A stretch of DNA of 52,638 nucleotides from Candidatus Pacearchaeota archaeon (GTDB lineage Archaea; Nanobdellota; Nanobdellia; Pacearchaeales; GW2011-AR1). Shown in pieces: positions 426 to 26,757 of this stretch; the stretch's first letter is position 1, and each line of letters starts with the position of its first letter. Below the pieces are notes generated by a model, which saw only the letters and a program-made list of their open reading frames with translations, did no database searches and was not told the DNA's origin. Both the position numbers and the translations under genes were made by a program. The DNA lies in NCBI GenBank assembly GCA_017609405.1, contig JAFCDZ010000004.1, forward strand, positions 1-52,638, given 5' to 3'.

Positions 426-767
426 ATGGAAAAATTTAATTTTAATTATGACTATGAAAATGATGATCTGTTTATTTATTTAGAAGAGAAAAAATCAGAG
501 GGAGCAGTAGAATTAGGAAATTTTATTTTAGATTTTGATAATAAAGGTAATCTAGTAGCTATGCAAATCCTTAATGTTACAGAAGTTCTTTCAAAAATAC
601 TCTCAAAGGTTAAAGAGTTTTCAAAGATTAAAGAAATAGAAATGGAGATTATTAATTTTAGAAATATGGATGCTATTAAATTTTGCATTTCTGATGATAA
701 AACAAAAGAAAAAGCAGTTATATTAATTCCGCATATCAAAGAAAAAAGTCCAGTTTTATCTCATTAG
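426..767 (+). CDS. DUF2283-like small protein, putative antitoxin partner
   Basis: 113-aa ORF. FNYDYENDDLFIYL...GNLVAMQILNV matches the YD.e.D.lyi...G.ivgiEil pattern of DUF2283 (from memory). Confidence 0.55.
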   Translation: MEKFNFNYDYENDDLFIYLEEKKSEGAVELGNFILDFDNKGNLVAMQILNVTEVLSKILSKVKEFSKIKEIEMEIINFRNMDAIKFCISDDKTKEKAVILIPHIKEKSPVLSH

Positions 768-855
768 TTTGTTGAGAGATTTTTTTAACAGCGAGAGGTT
801 TTAGTCTTTTGAGAGAGAGTTTGCTTTACAGCAAATATTAATAAAACTAAGATAT

Positions 856-1206
856 TTAAATTAAAAAAGGAATGAAAATAGCAATTAATACAGAAAGAGA
901 ACCATAACCTAAAAATGCAATTTGATAAAATTTTGTTGGTAATCTTACATTAAACAAATAAGAAGGAATTGCTATAATTGATAATATGGTACCACCATTT
1001 AGATACCATTGAAACAATTCTGGTAATTTAGACCAGTCACTATAAAATATTTGCCATAATAAAAAGGCATTGGCTACTATGCCTAATCTTCCAATGTGTC
1101 CTTGTCTAAATTCTTTTATTCCAAATAAAATTAATAGAAATAACATACCATAAGATATTATTTTTGGGATGAATACCAAACTCTCAACCATAAACGCTAT
1201 AGTCAT
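856..1206 (-). CDS. small multi-pass membrane protein
   Basis: 116-aa ORF with 3-4 hydrophobic segments. It is the last gene of a tightly packed minus-strand operon, 4 nt from the upstream gene. Confidence 0.6.
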   Translation of the reverse strand: MTIAFMVESLVFIPKIISYGMLFLLILFGIKEFRQGHIGRLGIVANAFLLWQIFYSDWSKLPELFQWYLNGGTILSIIAIPSYLFNVRLPTKFYQIAFLGYGSLSVLIAIFIPFLI

Positions 1207-1210
1207 TTGA

Positions 1211-1471
1211 TTACCTCAATTTTTTTCTTTTGAATATAACCTCCGCAACTGTTCTACCATATGATTTTCCTTTTGGTCTTAGAGTCACTACCTGCCCCTT
1301 TAGTTTTGCTAATCTCTTTTTTGCTTGCATATACCCTCTTTGCCCTTTTTCAGGAGCATTTAGACCGGCTACTCTTATATATTGAGATCCCATAACTCTT
1401 CTTCTAATTACAAAAGTATCCCCATCTATTATTTTTTGCACTTTTCTTCTAATTGATTTCATTTTTATCAC
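1211..1471 (-). CDS. short staphylococcal-nuclease (SNase/thermonuclease)-like protein
   Basis: 86 aa. It shows DGDTF...IRVAGLNAPE...YGRTVAEV, the characteristic SNase OB-fold motif order, but is much shorter than canonical SNase. It overlaps the upstream gene by 4 nt. Confidence 0.55.
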   Translation of the reverse strand: MIKMKSIRRKVQKIIDGDTFVIRRRVMGSQYIRVAGLNAPEKGQRGYMQAKKRLAKLKGQVVTLRPKGKSYGRTVAEVIFKRKKLR

Positions 1472-1803
1472 CCATTACAAGTTGGATTATACTCAGAGAT
1501 TAGTTGTTGTTCTACTTTTGTTCTATCTTCTTGAGTTGATTCTGGCATTTTATGAATACCAATAAATAAGTTTGATTCGCTTCCTGCAATTCTAACCCAA
1601 CAATTATAAGCATGATGTGATTTATAAAAACCTCTTTCCGATAGATTGCTAGATTCTCCAACATAGATTAATCGATAATATCCTTCCTTTTTCCCCTTGA
1701 CCATTATTACATAAACCGCAGATCTAAAAGGAGGGTCCCATTTTGTAATCTCAAACGGCCCTTCAAAAGATATTTTCTTTGATTTGCCCAATACAATTGT
1801 CAC
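1468..1803 (-). CDS. GIY-YIG-like nuclease domain protein
   Basis: 111 aa. AVYVIM...YRLIYVGESSNLSER...H...E..YNP resembles the GIY / YIG / Arg / Glu-Asn motif order. It has 4-nt overlaps on both sides. Confidence 0.5.
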   Translation of the reverse strand: MTIVLGKSKKISFEGPFEITKWDPPFRSAVYVIMVKGKKEGYYRLIYVGESSNLSERGFYKSHHAYNCWVRIAGSESNLFIGIHKMPESTQEDRTKVEQQLISEYNPTCNG

Positions 1804-2243
1804 GATTTAGCACCTCCGTAGTTTTGTATATTTTTTTGAACTATATCTAAAAATGACATTATGTCTTTTATTTTATCTTTAGTTATCATAATCTCACCAA
1901 AAGTTTCCCATCTATCTTCCTTCTTCTTTGCTTCTTTTATGCGGATAAATGGTTCGCCAAAAGGAGAAACAAAAGTATCCAAGAACAATATATGGTTGCT
2001 ATTTAACCATACTTTTTTTTGCCATTGTCCATTTCCATTAAAGAAATAAATTATAGAATTACCTAGTCTCTCTCCATGCACCCTTCCGATCGACTCTAAA
2101 TAATAAAGATGTTTTTTAACGGTGGCCCATGAAAGCTTGGTTCCTTCAGATATTTGGTTTATTGAAGCTTTCTTATTTTTTGCTAGGAAAACTTCTATCT
2201 TTTTTCTTTCCGTATTTTCATCAATTTTTGATATATCTACCAT
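1800..2243 (-). CDS. winged-helix DNA-binding protein
   Basis: 147 aa. The N-terminal INQISEGTKLSWATVKKHLYYLESIGRV is a typical wHTH recognition region. It is the first gene of the 2243->856 operon. Confidence 0.55.
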   Translation of the reverse strand: MVDISKIDENTERKKIEVFLAKNKKASINQISEGTKLSWATVKKHLYYLESIGRVHGERLGNSIIYFFNGNGQWQKKVWLNSNHILFLDTFVSPFGEPFIRIKEAKKKEDRWETFGEIMITKDKIKDIMSFLDIVQKNIQNYGGAKS

Positions 2244-2314
2244 AACAAATATTATAAAATTAAAGTTTAAATATTTTTCGTTTTTTTTAAGAATATTCTC
2301 AAGAAATATGAGAA

Positions 2315-2797
2315 TTAAATTTTAGGTATTAAACTAGCATAATCTATTGATTTTCTCCTTTTGTCCCATTTAGCAATTTGCATAAATTTGTTGCTCTTTA
2401 TTCCATACTTCAATAAATCCTCTCTTCTTAAAATATTAAACAAATGGGACAATCTACCTAAACCTTTAGAAGAAATCAAAAAAGATTCAACAGGATTTAA
2501 TAATTGAGTATAGCCCCAAAGTTGACCTAGATCCTTTAGTGTTAATTTTTTATCTTTTACTTCTACAAAAACAAGTTTAAAGTCTTTTCCTTTCCTTAGA
2601 ATCCCAACAATGTCTACTTTAATGTTTAAGCCAATTGCTTCTTTACATTCTATACCTTTACTTTTGAGAACAACATCTAAATTTCTTCTTGATGTCTCAT
2701 AAGTTGTTTCAATAGTATAACCTCTATATTTATCATTAAGATAATTTTGTAGCCATTCTTTTATTTCAGGATACAGTTTTTCTTCTTCCTTACTCAT
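2315..2797 (-). CDS. PD-(D/E)xK-like nuclease candidate (possible restriction subunit)
   Basis: 160 aa. VDIVG...(13 aa)...FVEVK fits the D-x(n)-E-x-K spacing. It is the last gene of the methyltransferase operon and overlaps the upstream gene by 8 nt. Confidence 0.4.
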   Translation of the reverse strand: MSKEEEKLYPEIKEWLQNYLNDKYRGYTIETTYETSRRNLDVVLKSKGIECKEAIGLNIKVDIVGILRKGKDFKLVFVEVKDKKLTLKDLGQLWGYTQLLNPVESFLISSKGLGRLSHLFNILRREDLLKYGIKSNKFMQIAKWDKRRKSIDYASLIPKI

Positions 2798-3707
2798 GGT
2801 AACCTAACTTTTTTGCTATTTCTTTCCAACTATCAAAATGTTTTCCTCTTATTTTAGGATGTATTGAAGGATGATTTTCATCTGGATGTTTTTGTTTTTT
2901 CTTTGTTAAGTCTCTTGTTTCCCAATAATATTTATGATGGGCTTCTGAAATTGGTTTTCCTTTATATTTTTTGGATTTTGATGCATATTTTTCCCAATTT
3001 TTTCTATTCAAATCAGCAAACTTTTTCAGAAGTTTATTTTTGTGTTCAACATTAAATCCTATTTTCTCAAATTCTTCAGCCCATATTTTTATTTGATGTT
3101 CCTTGTAATTTCTCATTCCCCCCTTATAGAATTTTAAAGTAGGATCAACAATGTTTGGGTGAGCAAATCGTATTGTATGGATAGGAACATCTAAATCTTT
3201 TAATAGATTGGCAATATCAATGCAAAGATCCCAATTAGTCATAATCTCTATATAAACTCTATTTTCAAAATCTTTCCAAGCCACATTACTTTTTCTTATA
3301 TGAGCAGTAACATCGGCGATTCCTCTAAGAAATTCTATTTTAACATCTCTGGGTGCACTGAATATTTCTTTAGGTATCCTAAAATCTCTCCAGCTAATTT
3401 TATTTTTAAGATACGCATTTATTGTTCTTATTAGGTAATCTCCGTTAGGTTTTGAGAAAGATATGTGAGCAATATTTGGTTTTGAGGTGTCCCAATTCAT
3501 ATCTACCCCGACGAGTGGTTTTAACCTTCCAACAATATCTAACAAACTAGCTTTTATTGATTGTTGGGTATTCTCACCTTCAATTACCAAATTTTTATGA
3601 GGAATGTCTATTATTATCTCTGTTTCTTTATTACCTCTAATAATTTGTCCTTTCCCTACAATCATTCCAAGCAAATAAGCTATATCGGGATTTAACATTT
3701 TTATCAC
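2790..3707 (-). CDS. protein with two LAGLIDADG-like helices (candidate nuclease / restriction subunit)
   Basis: 305 aa. DIAYLLGMIVGKG near the N-terminus and IEFLRGIADVTAHI about 120 aa later resemble the two motif helices of a monomeric LAGLIDADG fold. It overlaps the methyltransferase gene by 4 nt. Confidence 0.35.
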   Translation of the reverse strand: MIKMLNPDIAYLLGMIVGKGQIIRGNKETEIIIDIPHKNLVIEGENTQQSIKASLLDIVGRLKPLVGVDMNWDTSKPNIAHISFSKPNGDYLIRTINAYLKNKISWRDFRIPKEIFSAPRDVKIEFLRGIADVTAHIRKSNVAWKDFENRVYIEIMTNWDLCIDIANLLKDLDVPIHTIRFAHPNIVDPTLKFYKGGMRNYKEHQIKIWAEEFEKIGFNVEHKNKLLKKFADLNRKNWEKYASKSKKYKGKPISEAHHKYYWETRDLTKKKQKHPDENHPSIHPKIRGKHFDSWKEIAKKLGYHE

Positions 3708-4513
3708 TTTTTGAATATAAGTATGTACTCATGTATTTTATTTACTCTAAATACAAACGGATAGCCTAATGGCCTCATATTATTATATTCTTTTTGCCTA
3801 TCCCATATTATTATATCGTCAAGCTCAAATCCTATTTCCTTCATCTTATTTACAATGTCCATATGAAATGGATAAAATTTAGATTTTTTGCGGATGTCCA
3901 TAACTACAATAATACAATACTTACCTTTCTTTAATACTTTGTAAACTCCAACAAATGCTTCCTTTAATTTTTCTAAAAATTTATCGTAGTCATGTATATT
4001 TCCTAAATCTTCTTCAGAATCGCTATACTTTCTAATCTGTTTTCTATCAGCAGAACGTACTTGTGTAAGTATATCCCAATATGGTGGAGAAGTTATTACT
4101 AAATCAACAGAATTTTCTGGTAATATTTTGGGTAATTCAAACACAGTTTTGTTATATATTTCTGGTTTAATTAAATCCTCTTTTGATTGATTTAAACTTA
4201 ATTGAACATTTCTTATTCTGTCTTTTGTTAATTTTACATATTCCTCCGATAATTCAAAACCAATTCCTTTCTTTCCCAGTTGATATGCTGACACTACTGT
4301 GCTGCCACTTCCTAAAAAAGGATCCAAAATGACTTCGCCTTTGTCTTTTGTAAAAATTTTAATGAGTCTAGAAGTTAATTTGGTAGGAAACATTGCAGGA
4401 TGTTTAAGTTTTCTTTCCTCACTTGTTTTTTCAATATCCCTCCAAATACTAAAAGAGTATTGTAACCACGTTTTTCCATCTAAATTGTTCATCCTTTTTT
4501 TCATTCTCACCAT
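3704..4513 (-). CDS. DNA methyltransferase, N4-cytosine/N6-adenine family (SPPY), motif order I then IV
   Basis: 269 aa. HPAMFP...ILDPFLGSGSTV (AdoMet motif I block) precedes DLVITSPPYWD (catalytic motif IV). Confidence 0.85.
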   Translation of the reverse strand: MVRMKKRMNNLDGKTWLQYSFSIWRDIEKTSEERKLKHPAMFPTKLTSRLIKIFTKDKGEVILDPFLGSGSTVVSAYQLGKKGIGFELSEEYVKLTKDRIRNVQLSLNQSKEDLIKPEIYNKTVFELPKILPENSVDLVITSPPYWDILTQVRSADRKQIRKYSDSEEDLGNIHDYDKFLEKLKEAFVGVYKVLKKGKYCIIVVMDIRKKSKFYPFHMDIVNKMKEIGFELDDIIIWDRQKEYNNMRPLGYPFVFRVNKIHEYILIFKK

Positions 4514-6207
4514 AAACTTTTTTCTGACATCAGTTTTTTTAATGAATCTTCAATGATCCTTCTTTCAGATTTGCTAATATCATATAGCTTATAAACATAA
4601 TTATCTAGTTCTCTAAGAAGTTTTTTCTTATCTCTTATTCTTTCTAATTTTTCAACAATCTTAATTACATTTTTTTGTTTCTTTTTATCAACCAATTTAA
4701 TAGGTATTTTACCAAGATATACATTATCGGTATGCATTGTTAATTTTGATTTGTTGTAAATTGCATACATTAAATAGAAATTGATAAGTTTAGAATTCAA
4801 TAATCCAAGAAGATATTTTATATCTATTGTTTTATTATGTACGACTATATTTGTTATGGTATCAAAAGTTAAACATCCTTCTTTATCAATAGCTGATATT
4901 ATTCCCGCTTCACTTGAAAAAATATTTTGTAAAATTATCTTTTCGTTTTTAATTAGCTCTAATTTTGGTGTGTTATTAACTGCTTTGTTTATGTCTATGT
5001 AGTATGTAATAGAATAAGAAAATTTAGAAATGTTATTTCCTTTAATTATTGGTTTATTATTCTTACTTTTTGTTTTGGAGATTAAAGAAGAATTTGGACT
5101 TATGGTAATCCCCCTAAATATCTCTGCCAGATTTTCTAACGGTTTTCCAGAATTATTTATTTTTTCTATTAATTCATAATGTGCCTTTTCCTCAAACATT
5201 AAGAAATTATTATATTTCTTGAATATTTCTTGTGGTACTAAAAATACTTTTTGTTCTTCTAAGGGTTTTTCTTTTTTTTCAAAAACTTTAATTAAAACTT
5301 TATGATTCTTTAATTCATTTTTGTTTCTTGTTTTTTTAATAAACAAAATAATCTGTTCCCCCCTTACCCCCTTAAAACATGAACCAAGATCATAAATATG
5401 CAATATTTTTGAATTCTCAAGTAAAAAAGCCCTTAATCTGGAATAAGAATTAACTCTCAATAATGTCTTTGGCAAAACAAAAGCCATTATTCCCCCATCC
5501 TTTAATAACTCAAAAGATTTAGCAATAACTAACGATGCCGCGTTTGTGCTTCCATTAGCAATTTTGGAGTATATAGATTCGTTTATGTCATAGTCCCGAC
5601 CATTTTTTAATGTTACATATGGCGGATTTCCAATTATAAAGTCAAATCCTCCATCTTTTAGAATCTCTGAAAACTCTTTTTCCCAATCGAATGCTTTATT
5701 ATCTATTTTTTTATTTCCAACAATAGAATTACCCGTTCTTATGTTCTTCTCTAGAATTCTTAAAGATTCTGTATTTTGTCCATTCCTTAACCAGAGATTA
5801 ATTCTGGTTATCTTTGTAGCAGAGTCATTTAAATCTACACCATAAATATTATTTAATGCGTTTTTGTTCAATCTCTTTAAGAAATTATACGCATTTACTA
5901 AGAAAACCCCACATCCACAAGTAGGATCCAAAATTTTGGAATCTGGTTTTATATTAAGATAATTAATCATATAATTGACAATTTCTTGAGGGGTGTAAAA
6001 TTGTCCTAAATTTTTTCGTTCTTCTTCCTTGATTAATCTTTCAAAAAGAGCCCCCAATGTATCTTCTTGGATGTTTAATAATTTCTGTTCTTTAATTTTG
6101 AGAATAACATTTTGTACAATCTCATCTTCGTATGGCATAGATTCTAATGTTGCTTCATCTATTCTAAGTACATCATCCTTCTTTTTTTGTAGTAAAATGG
6201 TTTCCAT
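4507..6207 (-). CDS. gamma-class N6-adenine DNA methyltransferase (Eco57I/TaqI-like) with C-terminal target-recognition region
   Basis: 566 aa. It shows GQFYTP, ILDPTCGCGVFL (motif I) and FIIGNPPYV (motif IV), followed by a long C-terminal region. Confidence 0.85.
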   Translation of the reverse strand: METILLQKKKDDVLRIDEATLESMPYEDEIVQNVILKIKEQKLLNIQEDTLGALFERLIKEEERKNLGQFYTPQEIVNYMINYLNIKPDSKILDPTCGCGVFLVNAYNFLKRLNKNALNNIYGVDLNDSATKITRINLWLRNGQNTESLRILEKNIRTGNSIVGNKKIDNKAFDWEKEFSEILKDGGFDFIIGNPPYVTLKNGRDYDINESIYSKIANGSTNAASLVIAKSFELLKDGGIMAFVLPKTLLRVNSYSRLRAFLLENSKILHIYDLGSCFKGVRGEQIILFIKKTRNKNELKNHKVLIKVFEKKEKPLEEQKVFLVPQEIFKKYNNFLMFEEKAHYELIEKINNSGKPLENLAEIFRGITISPNSSLISKTKSKNNKPIIKGNNISKFSYSITYYIDINKAVNNTPKLELIKNEKIILQNIFSSEAGIISAIDKEGCLTFDTITNIVVHNKTIDIKYLLGLLNSKLINFYLMYAIYNKSKLTMHTDNVYLGKIPIKLVDKKKQKNVIKIVEKLERIRDKKKLLRELDNYVYKLYDISKSERRIIEDSLKKLMSEKSLW

Positions 6208-6350
6208 TATTTGTCCTCTTTTTTGAGTTTTTTCTCCATAAAGTTTTCAAACTGTTTAGAGATGACCCCACCTTTTTTATCACAATACTCCTTAAATCTG
6301 TCATAAATTTCAGAATCAACAAACAAAGTAACCCTCTTTTTAGCCACCAT
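6207..6350 (-). CDS. ribbon-helix-helix (CopG-like) small regulator
   Basis: Not in the ORF track because it is only 47 aa: MVAKKRVTLFVDSEIYDRFKEYCDKKGGVISKQFENFMEKKLKKEDK. It has the beta-strand/helix/helix pattern. Its TAA shares 1 nt with the ATG of the methyltransferase (TAATG). Confidence 0.55.
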   Translation of the reverse strand: MVAKKRVTLFVDSEIYDRFKEYCDKKGGVISKQFENFMEKKLKKEDK

Positions 6351-6540
6351 TACTCCTTTTATTTAATTTTATGTAATATTATTTACTTCTTTCTTTATAA
6401 ATTTTATGAACAATTTTACAGTGGCGGTGGAAACGATTTTCTTTTTATAAATTTTCCACTCTTAGTCCTTTAGGAACCTTTCCTTCCGTAATAGCCCATC
6501 TATTAAACCCCCCCTCTTCTAATATCTCTCACCATAAACA

Positions 6541-6981
6541 TCAAAACTTCCCTTTCTTATACCTATATCTCCTATATCCTTTGTTATCAAGCTCTTCATT
6601 TAATAATTCATCTACAATTTGCTGATATTTATCCCATCTGGAGACATGAATGAATTTTACTTTTTTGAAGTTTTCAATTAGTTTCTGAACTTTTATAAAG
6701 AGAGGGAGAAGATTTTGATTTCTGACTCTATACTCTCCTAAAAGTTGTTTGACTACTAATTCAGAATCAAGAAAACAAGTTACTTCTTCTTTTGTAAATT
6801 TTGATGCAAGCTCAAGGGCTTTTATAAGAGCTTCATATTCTGCAATATTGTTTGTAACTCTTTCTCCAATAAATCCAGAATATTTTGTTAAAATATTCCC
6901 GTCTTTTCTTACAATTACTCCAATTGCTCCTGGCCCAGGATTTCCTCTCGCACCCCCGTCAGAATTTGTGTATATCATCAT
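6541..6981 (-). CDS. rnhA: ribonuclease HI (type 1 RNase H)
   Basis: 146 aa. DGGARGNPGPGAIG, NNIAEYEALIKALE and DSELVVKQ are the RNase HI acidic-residue motifs. Confidence 0.85.
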   Translation of the reverse strand: MMIYTNSDGGARGNPGPGAIGVIVRKDGNILTKYSGFIGERVTNNIAEYEALIKALELASKFTKEEVTCFLDSELVVKQLLGEYRVRNQNLLPLFIKVQKLIENFKKVKFIHVSRWDKYQQIVDELLNEELDNKGYRRYRYKKGKF

Positions 6982-7781
6982 AAGTTATCTAAAGGAGATT
7001 TAATATTCTTTATTGAAGCTTGTGAAATATGTGTATATATTTGAGTTGTTTTTATATTAGAATGTCCGAGTAACTTTTGAATAATTCTCAAATCAGTTCC
7101 AGATTCAAGGAGGTGTGTTGCAAATGAATGTCTGAGCAAATGTGGATAAACACGCTTTTTAATTCCCGCCTTTTTTGCAGAGTTCTGAATTATCTGGGCA
7201 ATTGTCTTTTTGGTTAGTTTTCCTTTGCGGTTAGATTCAAATAAAATTTTTGAATTTGAAAGTTTACAATAGCTCTTTAATTCTTCTCGTATAGATTCAG
7301 GAATATTGACAAATCTATCTTTTCTTCCTTTTCCTAAATTAATCTTGATTAAATTTTCTTCAAAATTAATGTCTCCTTTTTTAAGATTGGTTATTTCAGA
7401 AACTCTTAAACCACAACCATAGAGTAATTTTATTATTAGTCTATGTTTAATATTTGAAGTTGAATTTACCATTTTTTTAATTTCCTTGGATGTTAAAATT
7501 TCTGGTAAAGTTTTACTTTGTTTAGGGTTTGGGATATTGAGTTCTTGATGTAAAATTTCCCTAAAAAAATATTTAATAGCAAAAACCATAGTTCTTACAG
7601 AAGAAGCTTCTTTATTTTTTAAAGATTTGAGAATAAATCTTTTTGCACTTTCTGAATTGATACCTTTTTTGCTTGCAAATTCAAGAAAGTTCTTAACATA
7701 AAGCAAATAATTTTTAATAGTTTCTTTAGAATAATTCTTTAATTCAAGATTTTCTTGTAATTCCCTTAATAATTCTTGCAT
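6978..7781 (-). CDS. xerA: tyrosine recombinase, XerA/XerC/XerD-like
   Basis: 267 aa. It has an N-terminal SAM-like core-binding domain, then GLRVSE (Arg), HLLRHSFATHL (His-x-x-Arg), LLGHS and TQIYTH (catalytic Tyr). It overlaps rnhA by 4 nt. Confidence 0.9.
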   Translation of the reverse strand: MQELLRELQENLELKNYSKETIKNYLLYVKNFLEFASKKGINSESAKRFILKSLKNKEASSVRTMVFAIKYFFREILHQELNIPNPKQSKTLPEILTSKEIKKMVNSTSNIKHRLIIKLLYGCGLRVSEITNLKKGDINFEENLIKINLGKGRKDRFVNIPESIREELKSYCKLSNSKILFESNRKGKLTKKTIAQIIQNSAKKAGIKKRVYPHLLRHSFATHLLESGTDLRIIQKLLGHSNIKTTQIYTHISQASIKNIKSPLDNL

Positions 7782-7809
7782 AATTCTATTTATATTTGTA
7801 ATTTATAAA

Positions 7810-7870
7810 GGTTACTATACCTCCACTTTAAGACTAAATAGAAACCAAAATCTCACAATAGTTTATGTTA
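7810..7870 (+). repeat. 61-bp direct repeat, copy 1 (partner at 17409..17469)
   Basis: GGTTACTATACCTCCACTTTAAGACTAAATAGAAACCAAAATCTCACAATAGTTTATGTTA. It is 60/61 identical to copy 2, with the single mismatch at 7831 vs 17430. It starts 29 nt upstream of the xer ATG, and identity stops exactly after GTTA. Confidence 0.95.
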
Positions 7871-7877
7871 TATTCAA

Positions 7878-8254
7878 TTTCAGTTTCGCCCTTGATTAAG
7901 TTTTTTGTGTGTTTCAAGAACAAGTTTTTCTACTTCAGATCCACAAACTTCGCATGGTTCATTTTCTTCTTCACAACAATCATAATTGACTAAACAATTT
8001 AGACAATAATGCCACCATGCCTCTTCTTCATTTAATTTAGAGTTACAATTTGAACAAAAATAACCTTCTTGATAAACTTCAACTTTGTGTCCAGGTTTAA
8101 CTAACCTACATAATTCTGGCATGGCTAATTCCATAAATCTATACAGCTCAGTTTGTGGTATATTCTTTAATTCTTCTTCTAAATCTCTGATTGTTTTAAT
8201 CATATAAGATAGAAGTTTTATTTAAGTATTTAATTTTAACGGGCGAAACTGAAA
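7878..8254. repeat. unit A: perfect 14-bp inverted repeat pair enclosing one promoter+gene
   Basis: TTTCAGTTTCGCCC at 7878-7891 and GGGCGAAACTGAAA at 8241-8254 (14/14). The left arm starts 7 nt after the GTTA at 7867-7870. The right arm is followed by CTCTTCGGGATTT. Confidence 0.9.
7880..8203 (-). CDS. Cys-rich hypothetical protein (cargo of unit A)
   Basis: 107-aa ORF in an AT-rich background, with CSNC...CLNC...CC...CEVC clusters. Its last codons (GRN-stop) lie inside the left IR arm. Confidence 0.6.
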   Translation of the reverse strand: MIKTIRDLEEELKNIPQTELYRFMELAMPELCRLVKPGHKVEVYQEGYFCSNCNSKLNEEEAWWHYCLNCLVNYDCCEEENEPCEVCGSEVEKLVLETHKKLNQGRN

Positions 8255-8321
8255 CTCTTCGGGATTTCTTTCGCTTCGCTCAAGAAACTTAAATTATATG
8301 TATTATAAGCATTAGTTTTAC
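8255..8321 (+). repeat. junction repeat E1 (CTCTTCGG hairpin ... ATTAGTT end)
   Basis: Starts with CTCTTCGGGATTT. The hairpin GCGAAA(8243-8248)...C(TTCG)G...TTTCGC(8269-8274) spans the junction. Contains TTCGCTTCGCTC and ends with ATTAGTT (8311-8317). Confidence 0.6.
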
Positions 8322-8368
8322 TTGATAATACACGAAAACATTTATATATCTTAAACAAGATTTATGAT

Positions 8369-9133
8369 ATGATGAAGGATTGGGAAATTGCTTTGCAAAA
8401 ATTTCTAAAAAAATGGGAAAATAAAAAGGAGGTAATTGGTGCGCTTGTTTGTGGAAGCTACATCACTGGAAATCCCAGCAAACATTCTGATATTGACATT
8501 CACATTATTTTAGATTCAAAAACTTCTTGGAGAGAAAGAGGTAATGAAATCATCAATGGAATTTTGATTGAATATTTTGCTAATCCTATAAAAAATATTA
8601 TGAATATCTTGAAGACGATTATAAACAAAGAAGGAGAGTTAATGCTCATATGTTTTGCACTGGCAAAGTTCTTTTTGATAAAACATGTGAATTAAAAAAA
8701 TTGATTAAGGATTCACAAAAATATCTCATAAAAAAATATCCTAAACAAAACAAAATACAGGTGGAATCTGCAAAGTATCATCTTTGGGGACACATGTGAT
8801 AATTTGGAGGAAGTTTTTGAAGCAAATGCAAAAGAATTCTTTTTTGTTTTCTATAATAACTTGAATTTTTTATTTGAAACATATGCGGAATTTTTACAAT
8901 TTGATTCAATACCTGTTCATAAATTAAGACGTTTTCTTGTAAATAAAAAAGACAAGAAAAAATATCTTATAAGTGATTTTCCCGATAAAAAATTTGTAAA
9001 ACTATTTGTAAGAGCTATTAATCTTAAAAATAAATCTAAAATGATGAAAGAGTATCAAAAACTAACAAAATATGTTTTTGATAGAATGGGAGGATTTAAT
9101 ATTGATGGTTGGAAAATCAAAACTCCTGCTTAA
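8369..9133 (+). pseudogene. nucleotidyltransferase (KNTase/ANT-like) gene disrupted by at least two frameshifts
   Basis: The N-terminal part (8369..8695) carries GSYITGNPSKHSDIDIH (GS...DxD NTase motif). The middle part reads on in another frame (..YEYLEDDYKQRRRVNAHMFCTGKVLFDKTCELKKL..). The C-terminal part is ORF 8804..9133. Confidence 0.6.
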
Positions 9134-9164
9134 TAGTTTATGAAGTCAGATAAAGCAAATTGTT

Positions 9165-9252
9165 CTGTCTCACTCAATACCCAAATATATTCTTGTAACT
9201 TCGTTACTTGCATAGTTCTTTCGGAAAAATTCATAACTTATAAAAATTAACT
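9165..9252 (+). repeat. junction repeat E2
   Basis: CTCACTCAATACCCAAAT, hairpin GTAAC-TTC-GTTAC (9195-9207), CTTTCGGAAAAATT, and the end ..TCATAACTTATAAAAATTAACT. It aligns with E3b/E4 (..TCATAACCGCAAAACGTTAGTT). Confidence 0.55.
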
Positions 9253-9267
9253 TCTTTTAAAATTAAT

Positions 9268-9804
9268 ATGGTAATAAAGATTGTAGGTAATAGAATTTAT
9301 TTAAAAGAAATGGATGAAAGTGATGCGAAAAAACTCCACGAATACTCAAAAGAACCAAAATTAAATGAGTTTTCAGGACCCTACAAAGCATCAGAATCAA
9401 TAGACAAGGCAAAAGAGTATATTAAAGAATGTAAAAAAAATATTTTAGAAAATAAATCTTATGTTTTAGGTATATATAAAAAAAATACAAACGAGTTTGT
9501 TGGAACAATAGGTTTTTTTGATTTAGACGATGAAAATAAAAGTGGGGAAATAGGATTTTGGATTGCTAGAAATTACTGGAATAGAGGTTATATGACAGAA
9601 GCAGTTAGTTTAATGACACATTTCATTTTCAAAGTTTTAAAATATCACAGAATTTGTGCTCACTTCCATGAATTAAATAAGGCAGTTGAAAGAGTCTTAA
9701 GTAAAGCAGGATATAAAAAAGAAGGGGAATTAAAAGAAGCACTTAAATCAAAAGAAGGTAAGTATTATAATGAGATTATTTATGGTATAACAAGTAATTC
9801 TTGA
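9268..9804 (+). CDS. GNAT family N-acetyltransferase (RimJ/RimL-like)
   Basis: 178 aa. It shows the typical IYLKEMDESDAKKLHEY N-terminus and the GFWIARNYWNRGYMTEA acetyl-CoA motif A region. Confidence 0.8.
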   Translation: MVIKIVGNRIYLKEMDESDAKKLHEYSKEPKLNEFSGPYKASESIDKAKEYIKECKKNILENKSYVLGIYKKNTNEFVGTIGFFDLDDENKSGEIGFWIARNYWNRGYMTEAVSLMTHFIFKVLKYHRICAHFHELNKAVERVLSKAGYKKEGELKEALKSKEGKYYNEIIYGITSNS

Positions 9805-9840
9805 ATGCAATATTGTCTAAATTTCTTTTATTATCAAGCA

Positions 9841-16304: not shown

Positions 16305-17369
16305 ATGGTCGGAGTTTATTCTGATAAAGATATCAGGGAATTAATTAAAAAAGGAGTTATTCAGGGAAATATAAATGACGAGCAAATACAACCTTCTTCA
16401 CTTGATTTAACTCTCGGTTCTTATGTTTATTGCTTACCTTTTTCATCAATCCTTAGTGCTTCTGACTCTTTTGAGGATTATCTTGAAAGATATTCAGCAT
16501 ATAAATTAAATCTTGATGAAAAACCTCTTTTTTTACATAAAGGAGTTCTTTATATAATTGAGCTGCAAGAGAGAGTATCTCTTCCGGAAGGAATTCTTGC
16601 ATTATCTAATCCAAAAAGCTCTACTGGAAGGACAGATATTCATGTAAGGTTGATAACAGAACCAAACCAGGGGAAGAAACAATTATTTGATATTATTCCT
16701 GAAAATTATTCAGGAAAACTTTGGTTAGAGGTTTATTCAAACTCTTTTGATATAATGGTTTACAAAGGCCTCTCTTTAAATCAAATAAGGTTCTATGACA
16801 AAGCAACAAAACAAGTTGAAAAACAAGAACTAATTAAGGTAAATAATGATAAAGGGGTTCTTTTTAATGACAAGGGTGTAGCTGAACCTCATTTTTTTGG
16901 AGATAGTGTGTTATTATCCCTTCATCTTCCAAAAGATGGCGTTGTTGGTTATATTGCTAAAAAAAGCCCATATCCTGTTGATTTGTCCAAAAAAGAAAAC
17001 AAAATAGATTATTTTTTTGAAGAATTAAGAAACCAAAATAATGGAATAATTATTGAAAAAGATTCTTTCTATATTCTTGTTTCAAAAGAAATTGTTAAAA
17101 TCCCTGAAAATTTATGCGCAGAATTAGAACCTTTTGATTCTTTTACTGGAGAGTATAGGGTACATTATGCAGGATTTATTGATCCTGGTTTTGAAGGAAG
17201 AATTGTTTTAGAAATAAGAAATTTTGGTCCAAGGTTTTTATTAAGAGATAACCAAGTAATTGGAAGATTAAAATTTTTCAAATTAAAACAACCCCCATAT
17301 AATAAGTATGGTGTAAATAGCAATTATCAGCAACAAAAAGGCCCAAGATTGGCGAAGTTTTTTAGTTGA
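16305..17369 (+). CDS. dcd: dCTP deaminase-like protein, long (~350-aa) form
   Basis: 354 aa. IQPSSLDLTLG and NPKSSTGRTDIHVR are dUTPase/dCTP-deaminase-fold motifs. A second beta-barrel-like half (GFIDPGFEGRIVLEIRN) follows. Confidence 0.7.
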   Translation: MVGVYSDKDIRELIKKGVIQGNINDEQIQPSSLDLTLGSYVYCLPFSSILSASDSFEDYLERYSAYKLNLDEKPLFLHKGVLYIIELQERVSLPEGILALSNPKSSTGRTDIHVRLITEPNQGKKQLFDIIPENYSGKLWLEVYSNSFDIMVYKGLSLNQIRFYDKATKQVEKQELIKVNNDKGVLFNDKGVAEPHFFGDSVLLSLHLPKDGVVGYIAKKSPYPVDLSKKENKIDYFFEELRNQNNGIIIEKDSFYILVSKEIVKIPENLCAELEPFDSFTGEYRVHYAGFIDPGFEGRIVLEIRNFGPRFLLRDNQVIGRLKFFKLKQPPYNKYGVNSNYQQQKGPRLAKFFS

Positions 17370-17408
17370 TTTTGAGTTTGTTGAAAATCTCTATTTAGAT
17401 TTTAGAGG

Positions 17409-17469
17409 GGTTACTATACCTCCACTTTAGGACTAAATAGAAACCAAAATCTCACAATAGTTTATGTTA
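17409..17469 (+). repeat. 61-bp direct repeat, copy 2 (partner at 7810..7870)
   Basis: 60/61 identical to copy 1, in the same orientation and 9,599 bp downstream. It begins 40 nt after the dcd stop. Identity again stops right after GTTA (17466-17469). Confidence 0.95.
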
Positions 17470-17548
17470 AAGAAAATATTTCCACTTTCTCCGTCGCTGT
17501 TTTAACTTTTATCGTCGGAGACAAGTCTCAAATTCTTATTTTGATATC

Positions 17549-17621
17549 TTCGTTTAACGCTCCAATCTGAAATTGTTTTTGTTGGATGTGCAACTTCAGA
17601 TAACATCGCTGATTAAACGAA
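17549..17621. repeat. 73-bp imperfect palindrome directly downstream of the unit B ORF (attC-like in size and ends)
   Basis: Outer arms are TTCGTTTAA 17549-17557 and TTAAACGAA 17613-17621 (9/9). Inner arms are TCTGAA 17566-17571 and TTCAGA 17595-17600. The left end contains GTTTAAC (RYYYAAC-type box) and the right end ATTAAAC. Confidence 0.6.
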
Positions 17622-17633
17622 ATTAGTGAATTT

Positions 17634-17810
17634 TTATTCTATCTTTTTTCCAAAAAATATTCTTATCGAGAACAACCAGAAAATTATTGCAGAAATTAAT
17701 AAAACCCAGTAGGTTGTTGTTGCAATTCCCGAAATATTTCTAATCGTAAAAAGTGTTAGTGCAACACCAAATACGGATGCTCCATCGATAAATCTTCTGT
17801 CGATTTTCAT
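17634..17810 (-). CDS. 58-aa two-TM hypothetical protein (cargo of unit B)
   Basis: Below the track length cutoff. MKIDRRFIDGASVFGVALTLFTIRNISGIATTTYWVLLISAIIFWLFSIRIFFGKKIE. A TATA-like box (plus-strand CTATATAAAT, 17831-17840) lies about 25 nt upstream of the ATG. Confidence 0.45.
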   Translation of the reverse strand: MKIDRRFIDGASVFGVALTLFTIRNISGIATTTYWVLLISAIIFWLFSIRIFFGKKIE

Positions 17811-17901
17811 AGTTTTATTAATTTCTCAAACTATATAAATTTTATTGTTCTCTAAAAAATCCACTAACTACGATATCAAAGAATTCTCGAAAGTGGAAAT
17901 A

Positions 17902-18126
17902 CTCTTCGGAATTTTTCCACTTCGTGAAAAACCGTCTTGCAGACTATTCCTCGTCCTCGCTTTCAGATCGGATTCCTTAACACACATTAAACGGTTCGCT
18001 CCGTTGCACTCGCTCACCCATATTTTTTGCTTCGCAAAAAACACTCGAGGTCACTTCGCTCCGCTCGTTTTGGCCCAAATTCTTGCTTCGCAAGAACTTC
18101 TCATAACCGCAAAACGTTAGTTTCAA
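17902..18126 (+). repeat. junction repeat E3 (two tandem, degenerate copies E3a/E3b)
   Basis: Starts with CTCTTCGGAATTT. Contains GGTTCGCTCCGTTGCACTCGCTCACCCATAT plus hairpin TTTTTGC-TTC-GCAAAAA (18024-18040). This is followed by GAGGTCACTTCGCTCCGCTCG..GGCCCAAAT plus hairpin TTCTTGC-TTC-GCAAGAA (18080-18096). Ends with GTTAGTTTCAA. Confidence 0.7.
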
Positions 18127-18419
18127 TCAGAAGCCGGCTCTTGCTGTTCTACAAGTAACTTTTCCAATTCATATTTTGGATGAATTTTAAAAAGCCTATA
18201 AGAAATAAAATGATGCTTTCCAGTTACAATATCTCCAATCATTTCTACGGAAAATGGGATGATTATTGGTGCTAAATATGGGCAGTGATATGTTGCGACT
18301 GTGCTTAAACCTAATCCCAATAGACCATAAATTCTGTTTCCTACATTGTACATTATTGTATGTCCATCAATTTTCCTAATTTGATACTGCAAATCTTCTA
18401 TTTGTTCATCTAAAGTCAT
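18123..18419 (-). CDS. hypothetical membrane-associated protein (cargo of unit C)
   Basis: 98-aa ORF with a hydrophobic core (IYGLLGLGLSTVATYHCPYLAPIIIPF). Its last codons (PASD-stop) lie inside the left IR arm. A TATA-like box (plus-strand TAGTATATAA, 18441-18450) lies about 25 nt upstream of the ATG. Confidence 0.55.
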   Translation of the reverse strand: MTLDEQIEDLQYQIRKIDGHTIMYNVGNRIYGLLGLGLSTVATYHCPYLAPIIIPFSVEMIGDIVTGKHHFISYRLFKIHPKYELEKLLVEQQEPASD

Positions 18420-18469
18420 AATTAAATAGTAACTGGAAAGTAGTATATAAAGTTAACGCCGGCTTCTGA
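18127..18469. repeat. unit C: perfect 12-bp inverted repeat pair enclosing one promoter+gene
   Basis: TCAGAAGCCGGC at 18127-18138 and GCCGGCTTCTGA at 18458-18469 (12/12). The left arm starts 7 nt after GTTA (18116-18119). The right arm is followed by CTTTGGATTTT. Confidence 0.9.
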
Positions 18470-18625
18470 CTTTGGATTTTTTGCCTTCACCCAACGTTGC
18501 ACTAAAATCCAACCTCTAACGAGGGAAACTAACAGCGATTAAGAGGCTACGCTCGGTTGCACCTCGCTCCACCCAAATTCTTCACTATGTTCGGAACTTC
18601 GTTAAATCGCATATGTTAGTTGCAA
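18470..18625 (+). repeat. junction repeat E4 (three consecutive hairpins)
   Basis: Hairpin TTGGATTTT 18472-18480 / AAAATCCAA 18513-18521, then CCTC-TAAC-GAGG, then the long imperfect palindrome 18527-18621. Contains CTCGCTCCACCCAAAT and ends with GTTAGTTGCAA. Confidence 0.7.
18527..18621. repeat. 95-bp attC-like imperfect palindrome
   Basis: AACTAAC (18527-18533) pairs with GTTAGTT (18615-18621), and GCGATT (18535-18540) pairs with AATCGC (18605-18610). The spacers are unequal (1 vs 4 nt). The G+C-rich interior 18543-18574 is about 69% G+C by my count. Confidence 0.55.
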
Positions 18626-19079
18626 TTTGAGATTTGGGCTAAAAAATAGTCAAATTAAAAATTTGAGTAATTATAAAAAAGAAGTTGGCATCTAAAGATT
18701 TTCAGTAAACGAAAGATAAGCTTGAGTTTTGTATGCATTTCTTACTCTGTCGCCCCATTCTGCTCTTTCTGAGGGGCTCAATCCGTTATCTCTATCATCC
18801 AAAACTCTTCTCGCTGTTTCTTCAGCAGTTATTGCACCTATATCATATCTACCGCCTTTCGCTCTTTCTATTGTAGCAACTGCTGTGCTCAATGCAGTTC
18901 TAGATGCTTGTCCTCTTTTAAATGCTTGCATATACAATGCTTGCAGATACATATCTGCGATTCCTTGTGACATTTTAATTCACCTTATATCTAGTTGCAA
19001 TAGCAAGTATTTAAATCTTTCTGTTATTCACTACTATGAAGATACAACGCCAACTTCTAAGGTACGCCCAAATCTCAAA
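18626..19079. repeat. unit D: perfect 14-bp outer plus 10-bp inner inverted repeat pairs enclosing one gene
   Basis: Outer pair: TTTGAGATTTGGGC 18626-18639 / GCCCAAATCTCAAA 19066-19079 (14/14). Inner pair: AGAAGTTGGC 18680-18689 / GCCAACTTCT 19049-19058 (10/10). The outer left arm starts 7 nt after GTTA (18615-18618). The outer right arm is followed by CTTCTTCGCC. Confidence 0.9.
18692..18973 (-). CDS. Ala/Arg-rich hypothetical protein of foreign composition (cargo of unit D)
   Basis: 93-aa ORF with 3 Lys, 10 Arg and many Ala, unlike the Lys/Ile/Asn-rich neighbours. It is visibly more G+C-rich. GGTGA lies 7 nt upstream of the ATG. Confidence 0.55.
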   Translation of the reverse strand: MSQGIADMYLQALYMQAFKRGQASRTALSTAVATIERAKGGRYDIGAITAEETARRVLDDRDNGLSPSERAEWGDRVRNAYKTQAYLSFTENL

Positions 19080-19125
19080 CTTCTTCGCCTACGGCTCCGA
19101 CCACACTGCGCTCTCTTTTCTTAAG
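19080..19125 (+). repeat. junction repeat E5 (truncated/degenerate)
   Basis: CTTCTTCGCCTACGGCTCCGACCACACTGCGCTCTC... is G+C-rich. It sits in the same position relative to the right IR arm as E1/E3/E4 and has no clean GTTAGTT end. Confidence 0.45.
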
Positions 19126-19290
19126 TAGGAAATAAATAACAAAACCAAAAAGAACAAAAAATATTTAAACTCCTTTATTTTTTGATTTTTATGGATATTA
19201 GCAAGCAAATTTTATTCTTGAATGCTTTGCTAATCAGTGTTCTGTTACTGCTGTTATAATTCTGCTTCTTTTTTGAAGCAGGGAGGTAAA

Positions 19291-26399: not shown

Positions 26400-26450
26400 A
26401 TTTTAAAAAAGTTTTTTTATTTTATAAGTTTTGTGAAACCCTTCTAAAAC

Positions 26451-26686
26451 TTCGAATCCAAATGCCCGAACCAGGATTCGGGCCTCATATCAAAGATATT
26501 CGACCTGCTTCGCCCAAGCGTGGTAAGCAGGCCTCACAAAGTTCGACCTGATACGCTTACTCACTTCGTTCGTAATCAAATTAGGCCTCACCAAAGCACT
26601 GAAGCTCGACCTGATACGCTTACTCACTTCGTTCGTAATCATATCAAACCTAAAGGTTCGAATCCAAATGCCCGAACCAGGATTCG
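26451..26686. repeat. 30-bp perfect direct repeat pair duplicating the 3' end of tRNA-Arg plus its flank
   Basis: TTCGAATCCAAATGCCCGAACCAGGATTCG at 26451-26480 and 26657-26686 (30/30). The second copy covers the last 18 nt of the tRNA plus 12 nt of trailer. Confidence 0.95.
26543..26641. repeat. 36-bp perfect tandem-type direct repeat (period 63) between the two tRNA-end copies
   Basis: TCGACCTGATACGCTTACTCACTTCGTTCGTAATCA at 26543-26578 and 26606-26641. A third, diverged unit at 26499-26540 starts with the same TCGACCTG. All units recall the T-arm CAGGTTCGAA read on the tRNA strand. Confidence 0.9.
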
Positions 26687-26757
26687 AACCTGGATTCCAA
26701 CCTGTTTGCAGAGCAAACTTCCGCAAGGTTGTGTTCTATCCCTTGAACTATTCGGGC
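26669..26757 (-). tRNA. tRNA-Arg (GCG) with a ~17-nt intron at the canonical 37/38 position
   Basis: Hand fold: GCCCGAA-T-A-GTTC-AAGGGATA-GAAC-A-CAACC-TTGCGG[AAGTTTGCTCTGCAAAC]A-GGTTG-GAAT-CCAGG-TTCGAAT-CCTGG-TTCGGGC-A. The intron forms GTTTGC-TCT-GCAAAC. A TATA-like TTTATAAAG lies about 25 nt upstream. Confidence 0.85.

Follow-up and report, generated by a model that had tools for sequence, protein, structure and literature searches.

The archaeal contig JAFCDZ010000004.1 (assembly GCA_017609405.1, Candidatus Pacearchaeota archaeon), analysed here over 52,638 nucleotides and referred to as the window, carries two near-identical copies of a 61-bp sequence, one of which lies beside xerA, the gene of a XerA-family tyrosine recombinase. 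This 61-mer is probably the attI-type docking site of an integron-like cassette platform served by the adjacent XerA, an enzyme without the I2 insert of integron integrases. An attI-like primary attachment site had been proposed by a first-pass annotation made from the letters of the window. The proposal gains support from a conserved module upstream of xerA in relatives, from attC-like junctions between cassettes, from the pairing of cassette starts with their own inverse core site (R''), and from a switch between constant and variable sequence at GTT.

The 61-bp repeat pair

Copy 1 of the 61-mer (GGTTACTATACCTCCACTTTAAGACTAAATAGAAACCAAAATCTCACAATAGTTTATGTTA) occupies positions 7810-7870 and copy 2 positions 17409-17469, both on the plus strand. 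The copies agree at 60 of 61 positions, the sole mismatch being A7831 versus G17430, and lie 9,599 bp apart from start to start, as the first-pass annotation had described. At up to three mismatches the window holds no third copy, and none is expected by chance (0 in 100 shuffles). The placement of the copies was also given correctly, with 28 nt between copy 1 and the ATG of the recombinase gene (7781, minus strand) and 39 nt between the stop of dcd (17369) and copy 2. On the right, identity ends at GTTA in both copies, and a perfect inverted repeat specific to the unit starts exactly 7 nt further on. The internal junctions ending ACGTTA (18119) and ATGTTA (18618) resemble the 61-mer in this respect, with arms again 7 nt later. 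On the left, a weaker homology continues for 22 nt (14/22, P ~0.0013 against random 22-mer pairs from the window); beyond those 22 nt, and 3' of GTTA, similarity between the copies is at baseline. A partial motif at 6453-6474, previously considered related to the 61-mer, is a chance resemblance, matching at just 11-13 of 22 positions; a score of 14/22 or better against one or another 22-mer of the repeat is attained at more than 1,500 places on each strand.

Within copy 1, box 1 (GGTTACTATAC, 7810-7820) is followed by a degenerate dyad (ACTAAATAGAAA / CCAAAA / TCTCACAATAGT, 7833-7862), by TTAT, and by the closing GTTA (7867-7870), with the exchange point placed after GTT. Box 1 abuts the TATA-like element TTTATAAATT (7800-7809, minus strand) of the xerA promoter region (7782-7809, minus strand), which aligns with the TATA box of relatives. 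This position, and the conservation of box 1, would suit a chance duplication of a regulatory element (promoter or operator) or of a small RNA gene, with no connection to recombination. Such an explanation is extremely unlikely, as copy 2 has lost the TATA box and lacks, on both strands, a gene that it could control, the 61-mer folds no better than shuffled sequence, and its GTT end is a point of DNA exchange in populations. A noncoding RNA, named by the first-pass annotation as an identity that would speak against an attachment site, finds no backing in Rfam either: the whole window at gathering thresholds returned two tRNAs only, with no match to the 61-mer, and the E-value mode over 17380-19250 returned nothing meaningful. 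An exact scan of metagenomes for AAAATCTCACAATAGTTTATGTTA gave 0 matches.

A conserved module upstream of xerA

The surroundings of copy 1 recur in the comparison loci, which are labelled L002, L003, L007, L053, L086, L090 etc. In close relatives, the order upstream of xerA is a TATA box, GGTTACTAWAC, ~10 nt, a lineage-specific dyad, and ATGTT(A), after which four variable bases plus CAA (NNNNCAA) lead to an arm at offset 7. Most close relatives carry this module, including L003, L004, L006-L011, the L090 series, and others. Across the fetched DNA, box 1 is all but confined to this position: 12 loci have it, each a single time, 30-50 nt upstream of xerA. The dyads of the relatives are dif-like, with arms of 10-16 nt and a spacer of ~6 nt; the dyad of L009 is near-perfect (CGTAATACCAA-N6-TTGGTATTACG), while that of L008 has 16-nt arms with a 6-nt spacer and that of L007 has 14-nt arms. 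When the window genes were compared with all loci by tblastn, acylphosphatase alone was shared near xerA, in L002.

Woesearchaeota-type loci (L014, L022, L026, L031, L051, L064) carry a dif-like site, TTCGTATAA-N4-6-TTATACGAA, ~50-90 nt upstream of xerA. The archaeal dif site consists of imperfect 11-bp inverted repeats around a 6-bp spacer (11-6-11)(PMC2958812), and the TTCGTATAA-N6-TTATACGAA site of distant relatives matches this published architecture. No cassettes stand beside the dif-like 11-6-11 site of the Woesearchaeota-type and more distant Nanoarchaeota loci. It could be argued that the 61-mer is primarily the dif site of the chromosome, with the dyad as the XerA core site of dimer resolution, at which elements resembling integrative mobile elements exploiting Xer (IMEX) pile up, as the CTX phage does at dif1, without a dedicated attI function. 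In favor of this explanation, the recombinase is a bona fide XerA, the canonical site directly upstream of xerA in Woesearchaeota-type relatives has the published archaeal form, and the Pacearchaeota dyads occupy the same place. Yet it is unlikely, since the switch from constant to variable sequence lies 4-10 nt outside the dyad rather than in its spacer, and since lineages with ~70% identical XerA differ in the dyad but share conserved GTT(A) and attC boxes. Furthermore, the inverted repeats, near-perfect in relatives, are complementary at 7/12 positions in the window dyad. Instead of a single dif site per chromosome in the termination region, there are two copies 9.6 kb apart, and direct dif sites at that distance would delete GlyRS, EndA, tRNA-Met, and S17e. 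A dif role is nevertheless compatible with a docking site, as the dyad may be dif and the GTT box the entry point of cassettes.

Exchange at GTT

The position of the putative crossover emerges from loci that share a recombinase but differ in the cassette that follows. One identical XerA protein is carried by 21 contigs of the L090 sample series; of these contigs, with seven places examined, most end 90-476 nt upstream of xerA. To the left of ...CCGTTATGTT, the contigs with the identical XerA agree at 90/90 positions. To the right of GTT, five read CAACTCAATCGTGAGCC..., one reads AAGTCCAATTTTTGTT, and one stops exactly at GTT. The unit CAACTCAATCGTGAGCC... also follows GTT from its first base in L086, beside a different XerA (78 nt, 93.7% identical), where the sequences to the left of the L086 and L090-series junctions are unrelated (13/40). 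The L007 locus adds a second line of evidence, as its attC core reads GAACA/GTTC, not TAAC/GTTA, and its xerA-proximal site ends ...TTTTGTTC (GTTC), indicating that the end of the docking site and the attC core covary within a genome.

Taken from these alignments, exchange appears to occur at or inside GTT, with the fourth base (A in the window) belonging to the cassette. The first-pass annotation had drawn the boundary at GTTA; exchange at this end of the 61-mer holds, while the boundary is one base too long, as the fourth base travels with the cassette in L090, L093, and L086, as well as in L007. On comparative evidence, an attI-type docking site hence stands beside the recombinase gene, with cassettes inserted at it.

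attC-like elements at the cassette junctions

The junctions between cassettes are occupied by attC-like elements of ~100-215 nt, in regions richer in G+C. Their order is R'' (nnnTAACA), L'' directly after it, hairpins (often with UUCG-type loops), CCACCCAAATT, L', a bulge of 2-3 nt, and R' (TGTTA plus 3 nt). A plain TAAC...GTTA pattern proved uninformative, matching 140 times versus 212 times in shuffled sequence, and a covariance model (R1), built from eight junction elements and searched over 43 sources, was used instead. The model gave 31 matches. Outside the window, 21 of them have E <1e-4, and every one of these is located on the upstream side of xerA, antiparallel to the gene, in arrays of up to 8.

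The elements have R''/L''/L'/R' boxes with the core TAACA/TGTTA and keep their fold while their sequence varies. The L helix is paired at 92.8%, with changes on both sides at 8 of 9 pairs, and its covariation score is 0.426 versus 0.149 in shuffles (0/500 reach it), while pairing in slid controls is 30-37%. Among the R pairs, the inner ones do not vary and the outer three mostly lack a partner in the array, which would fit a 3' partner located in the next cassette. In agreement, pairing between the first 5 nt of a cassette and the 5 nt in front of its TAAC reaches 4.25/5 positions, compared to 2.0/5 for the start of the next cassette (n=16, p=0.0013), so that the cassette start is complementary to its own inverse core.

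The same relation can be followed in a single cassette of the window, U2b. Joined as a circle, it combines a 12-bp arm stem, two hairpins, and an R-bulge-L stem, and its circular-form junction reaches -36.6 (top strand) and -40.5 (bottom strand) kcal/mol, with z ~-6.5. Both strands fold equally well, and counts of G-T versus A-C (12 versus 15), considered as a pointer to the strand of folding, show no bias. The stem would be closed in the circular form with the exchange point in its middle, and as a result every unit in the array is bounded by its own perfect inverted repeat. By this reading of the folds, the private arms are the outer stem of a folded attC-like site, prolonging the pairing of start and R'' flank past two inserted hairpins, with its halves split by the crossover, and not transposon ends.

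Some parts of the covarying sites are also conserved in sequence. CCACCCAAATT (or CACCCATATTTT) is a recurrent motif of the central loop, and CGTTGCACT one of the hairpin that separates the right arm from R'', for example at 18497-18505 and 18560-18572 of the window and in L003, L004, L008, L011, and L086; unlike these, the loops of classical attC sites are not conserved in sequence. A further observation concerns L007, where positions 5035-9783 hold an array of eight attC-like sites including a mini-unit of ~213 bp without an open reading frame (ORF). The start of this mini-unit, TATGCAATTTTGCTCC, occurs three times as an exact 35-nt repeat (at 6035, 9658, and 9871).

A XerA-family recombinase without the I2 domain

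The recombinase gene (6978-7781, minus strand) encodes 267 amino acids and belongs to the XerA family. The protein scores 253.9 bits with the NCBIfam model recomb_XerA_Arch (cutoff 220) and matches Pyrococcus abyssi XerA (4a8e) end to end (E 6e-56). The integron integrase model TIGR02249 gives 212 bits, below its cutoff of 265, and in two pieces. Residues 185-237 of VchIntIA (2a3v), the 53 residues of the I2 region, have no counterpart, as only 9 residues of the query fall there, and the additional domain specific to IntI, with its I2 helix, is accordingly missing. Hundreds of homologues at 68-76% identity exist, abundant in Pacearchaeota, and the nearest carry the names Pacearchaeota or Nanoarchaeota. 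With homologues so numerous, xerA has the look of a housekeeping-type gene that the lineage conserves. The window itself has ~29% G+C and a gene set of archaeal type, including EndA and S17e.

The I2 insert is the defining feature of integron integrases and is credited with letting them recombine folded attC hairpins safely. In a rival explanation, the cassettes are moved by a canonical I2-bearing integrase encoded elsewhere; the site next to xerA would then be a hot spot, or its place in the gene order coincidental, and XerA would play no part. Classical IntI genes and attC sites do occur in Archaea, where Pacearchaeales are listed with integrase-less attC clusters (PMC9668308), the R boxes TAAC/GTTA equal the classical core site, and 52 kb of the genome are visible. 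This explanation is nonetheless improbable. In more than 10 independent lineages, one of them a bacterium of the candidate phyla radiation (CPR), the arrays stand directly beside xerA and diverge from it in the same way, the gene tables of those ~20-kb loci contain no IntI-type gene, and in L007 the terminal tetranucleotide of the site covaries with the attC core.

The CPR bacterium is a Gracilibacteria metagenome-assembled genome (L053, 6190-10810) whose I2-less recombinase of 275 amino acids scores 238.6 bits with XerA_Arch and is divergent from the array. Its site ends ...TAGTTA, and the cassettes after it pair at their start with their own R'' and have attC sites that match model R1. In Paenibacillus (L058, 9944-18550), an I2-less recombinase of the XerA_Arch family is encoded with attC-like sites downstream of the gene.

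The second copy as an orphan site

Copy 2 (17409-17469) is an orphan attI-like site. No recombinase gene adjoins it, and it heads an array of three cassettes (U2a-U2c) in the same orientation. Adjoining it on the left, the 22 nt at 17387-17408 are a diverged homologue of the xerA promoter region in which the TATA box is lost, and the ends of the 61-mer coincide with box 1 and GTTA. The agreement of 60/61 within the 61-mer versus 14/22 in the flank points to constraint on the 61-mer, or to recent conversion. Copy 2 may hence be a duplicated, recombinase-less site that is kept by selection and used in trans, and it may be active.

It has also been considered whether the pair marks a 9.6-kb insertion, either as attL/attR of an element or through a circle recombined between two identical sites. 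The direct repeats, the tyrosine recombinase beside one copy, and a dcd at the right end without a close homologue (47% at best) are compatible with such an event. It is very unlikely, however, as the recombinase lies outside the interval, GlyRS, tRNA-Met, S17e, and EndA lie inside it, relatives have the site as a single copy beside xerA, and the homology runs into the xerA promoter to the left of both copies, unlike an att core. Flanking repeats enclosing an integrase of their own with accessory genes are likewise not what the interval shows. The first-pass annotation had rejected attL/attR as well, which is reasonable from gene content and the position of the recombinase, even if insertion of a circle is formally possible. 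Its description of the intervening DNA as core genome applies to GlyRS, S17e, EndA, and the tRNA, but not to 7871 to ~9800, which is a decayed cassette array, nor with any certainty to dcd.

The dcd gene (16305-17369) encodes a long-form dCTP deaminase whose best homologue among 5.8 billion proteins has 47% identity, and it may be foreign or fast-evolving rather than core. A giant cassette carrying dcd was considered and discarded, as junction features are absent upstream of the gene. Homologues at up to 47% are too distant for a synteny test; among metagenome contigs no dcd relatives were found, and no empty site or other content for copy 2 was recovered.

Cassettes in the window

In the window, the cassette arms are perfect repeats of 12-14 nt that begin 7 nt 3' of GTTA, with the reverse complement 320-430 nt further on, past a small ORF on the minus strand. 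Behind copy 1, cassette U1a (7871-8314, plus strand) starts with the 7-nt TATTCAA and has a perfect 14-nt inverted repeat as arms (7878-7891 and 8241-8254). Its ORF (7880-8203, minus strand) encodes a Cys-rich product of 107 amino acids without a Pfam family above threshold. A short, decayed attC remnant ending GCATTA (8255-8314) was recognized by eye against the attC consensus and has no covariance-model match. The following 8315-9810 (plus strand) probably represents older, decayed cassettes, as deduced from Pfam and from reading the sequence, with no match to the covariance model. It includes a nucleotidyltransferase gene (Pfam Polbeta/NTP_transf_2) broken into the ORFs 8369-8695 and 8804-9133, between which a further short, overlapping ORF lies; this minimal gene (8369-9133) is probably a pseudogene inside the decayed array. 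An attC relic with the motif ACCCAAAT, read by eye at ~9180-9250, and a GNAT acetyltransferase gene (9268-9804, Pfam Acetyltransf_3) follow.

Behind copy 2, all three cassettes lie on the plus strand with their ORFs on the minus strand. U2a (17470-18119) starts with the 7-nt AAGAAAA, has arms at 17477-17489 and 17889-17901, and ends ACGTTA; its ORF (17634-17810) encodes a hydrophobic product of 58 amino acids. Its attC-like element is long and divergent, with a weak covariance-model match at 17979-18126 (11.5 bits, E 2.6), and its start pairs 4/5 with its own R'' flank. U2b (18120-18618) starts with GTTTCAA, has arms at 18127-18138 and 18458-18469, and contains an ORF of 98 amino acids (18123-18419). 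Its attC-like element is canonical, with the core at 18521-18625 (87.1 bits, E 4e-17). U2c (18619-19130) starts with GTTGCAA, has arms at 18626-18639 and 19066-19079, and carries an ORF of 93 amino acids (18692-18973), while its attC is cut short after the right arm.

Homologues of the U2c ORF with 67-79% amino acid identity are found in other genomes in four contexts, always preceded by ...GATGTTA, and one of them (L086) has the same arms plus a complete attC near another XerA. Judged by these contexts, the cassettes appear to be mobile.

Proposed mechanism and points that weigh against it

In the proposed mechanism, excised cassette circles would fold their attC, the circular form closing one long stem in which the first 5 nt and the arm, 7 nt in, pair 5' of the cassette's own R''. 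XerA, as the putative acting enzyme on the 61-mer, would then carry out a reaction like the attI x attC exchange of IntI, in which the folded attC and the double-stranded 61-mer trade strands at G|TT. Copy 1 would be the native site beside xerA, while copy 2 would be a duplicated site without a recombinase, used in trans and heading U2a-U2c. In known integrons, recombination of attI x attI is inefficient, at ~1.8 x 10^-4 for IntI1 (PMC7790495), and by analogy a similarly low rate would make two direct copies tolerable.

Several points weigh against this reading. What links XerA to the cassettes would be conserved adjacency only, and with 52 kb of the genome visible, a canonical IntI could be encoded elsewhere. 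In known integrons, I2 is considered necessary for attC recombination (PMC7790495; Messier & Roy 2001, as cited there). The position of the nick can be resolved no finer than within ATGTT. The dyad of the 61-mer is complementary at 7/12 positions only, and neither copy, on either strand, folds better than its shuffles, leading to rejection of the 61-mer as a hairpin or RNA in this genome. The window holds two copies, and no second xerA-proximal site exists within ~10 kb on each side of xerA in five close relatives, making the orphan copy a singular case among the close relatives compared. The proposed mechanism does not account for the origin of the duplicate or for the fact that direct copies 9.6 kb apart have not deleted the housekeeping genes between them. 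Finally, the attC sites of the window, of which one is intact (U2b), one divergent (U2a), one truncated (U2c), and one a relic, have a decayed look; with only relics in the first patch after U1a, the window arrays look old.

Comparison with known systems

The system resembles integrons in having a recombinase gene divergent from an adjoining docking site, followed by an array of cassettes that each combine a gene with a hairpin site. The core boxes (nnnTAAC and GTTRRRY-like), the conservation of structure over sequence, the complementarity of the cassette start to its own R'', and exchange at or inside GTT are also shared, as is cargo of the type found here (GNAT, nucleotidyltransferase, and small unknown ORFs). 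In contrast to integrons, the recombinase is of the XerA family, without the additional I2 domain by which IntI is defined. The attC-like sites are larger (~100-215 nt) and hold the conserved internal motifs CCACCCAAATT and CGTTGCACT, and a long cassette-specific outer stem leaves perfect inverted repeats of 9-15 nt around each gene. Moreover, many cassette ORFs face the recombinase, the docking site holds a dif-like dyad, and the window genome has a second, integrase-less docking site. Going by sequence, the system has the attI, attC, and cassette-boundary features of integrons but not an IntI-type integrase.

With Xer/dif, the system shares the protein family and, in relatives, a dyad of the 11-6-11 type beside the gene. 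In bacteria, dif also adjoins xerS and xerH. In Thermococcales, by contrast, dif is reported not to lie next to xerA (PMC2958812); the system also differs from Xer/dif in that the switch point lies outside the dyad, cassette arrays follow the site, and the site is present twice. The IMEX elements likewise use a host Xer without an integrase of their own, have a folded hairpin substrate, and stack in tandem beside a Xer site; the CTX phage, for example, integrates as a folded single strand at dif1. The elements described here are instead cassettes of one gene each that carry R/L boxes of the attC type; they are neither phages nor islands, with a crossover outside the dif spacer and without replication or packaging genes.

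Archaeal integrons and attC clusters were described by Ghaly et al. 2022 (PMC9668308) with the integrase defined by the IntI-specific domain. In that study, Pacearchaeales appear only as attC clusters without an integrase, and the Pacearchaeota attC given there is short and classical (PMC9668308). In a search of the literature with incomplete coverage, this study, which requires the IntI domain, was the only one found to bear on a Xer-linked integron-like system in DPANN or CPR.

Neighboring features

To the left of xerA-rnhA, 426-6207 contains genes of restriction-modification type, namely a fusion of Eco57I/N6_Mtase/TaqI_C (4507-6207) and an N6_N4 methyltransferase (3704-4513), together with a DUF2283 gene (426-767) and several small unknown ORFs. 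Pfam families of this region appear among archaeal cassette cargo in Ghaly et al. (PMC9668308), and no attC-like sites were found in the region. Further to the right, an intron-containing tRNA (26669-26757, minus strand; 4-base anticodon according to ARAGORN) is accompanied by a 42-nt copy of its 3' end (90% identical, 206 nt downstream) and, between the two, by tandem repeats of 50 nt (26539-26588 and 26602-26651, 90% identical). The region 26444-26757 looks like a scar of integration at the tRNA, or of duplication of the tRNA end. An ORF of 2,306 amino acids (29448-36368, minus strand) with several internal repeat families, of a period of ~66-69 nt as well as longer ones, presumably encodes a giant surface protein.

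Implications for the origin and detection of integrons

An origin of integrons from Xer-type enzymes has been published as a hypothesis whose authors state the lack of intermediates (PMC7790495), and a Xer-like stage with hairpin elements has been proposed as the integron ancestor (Escudero et al., PMC7790495). By analogy, the arrangement described here resembles this stage. It could be speculated, as a tentative generalization that we hold to be possible but somewhat doubtful, that the I2-less XerA-family enzymes of DPANN and at least some CPR bacteria are working integrases of a distinct integron class, with a dock built on a dif-like site. If so, they would exemplify, in living form, the proposed takeover of a Xer-like ancestor by elements that bear hairpins; dimer resolution and cassette capture may then be tasks of the same enzyme, and several docking sites of a genome could be used in trans. 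The duplicated orphan site would be such a case, with two arrays served by a single recombinase. Should XerA be the enzyme, integron finders that require an IntI domain would under-report the integrons of DPANN and CPR and log them as integrase-less attC clusters, the requirement for I2 would not be universal, and the hypothesis on the origin of integrons would become testable with a natural system.

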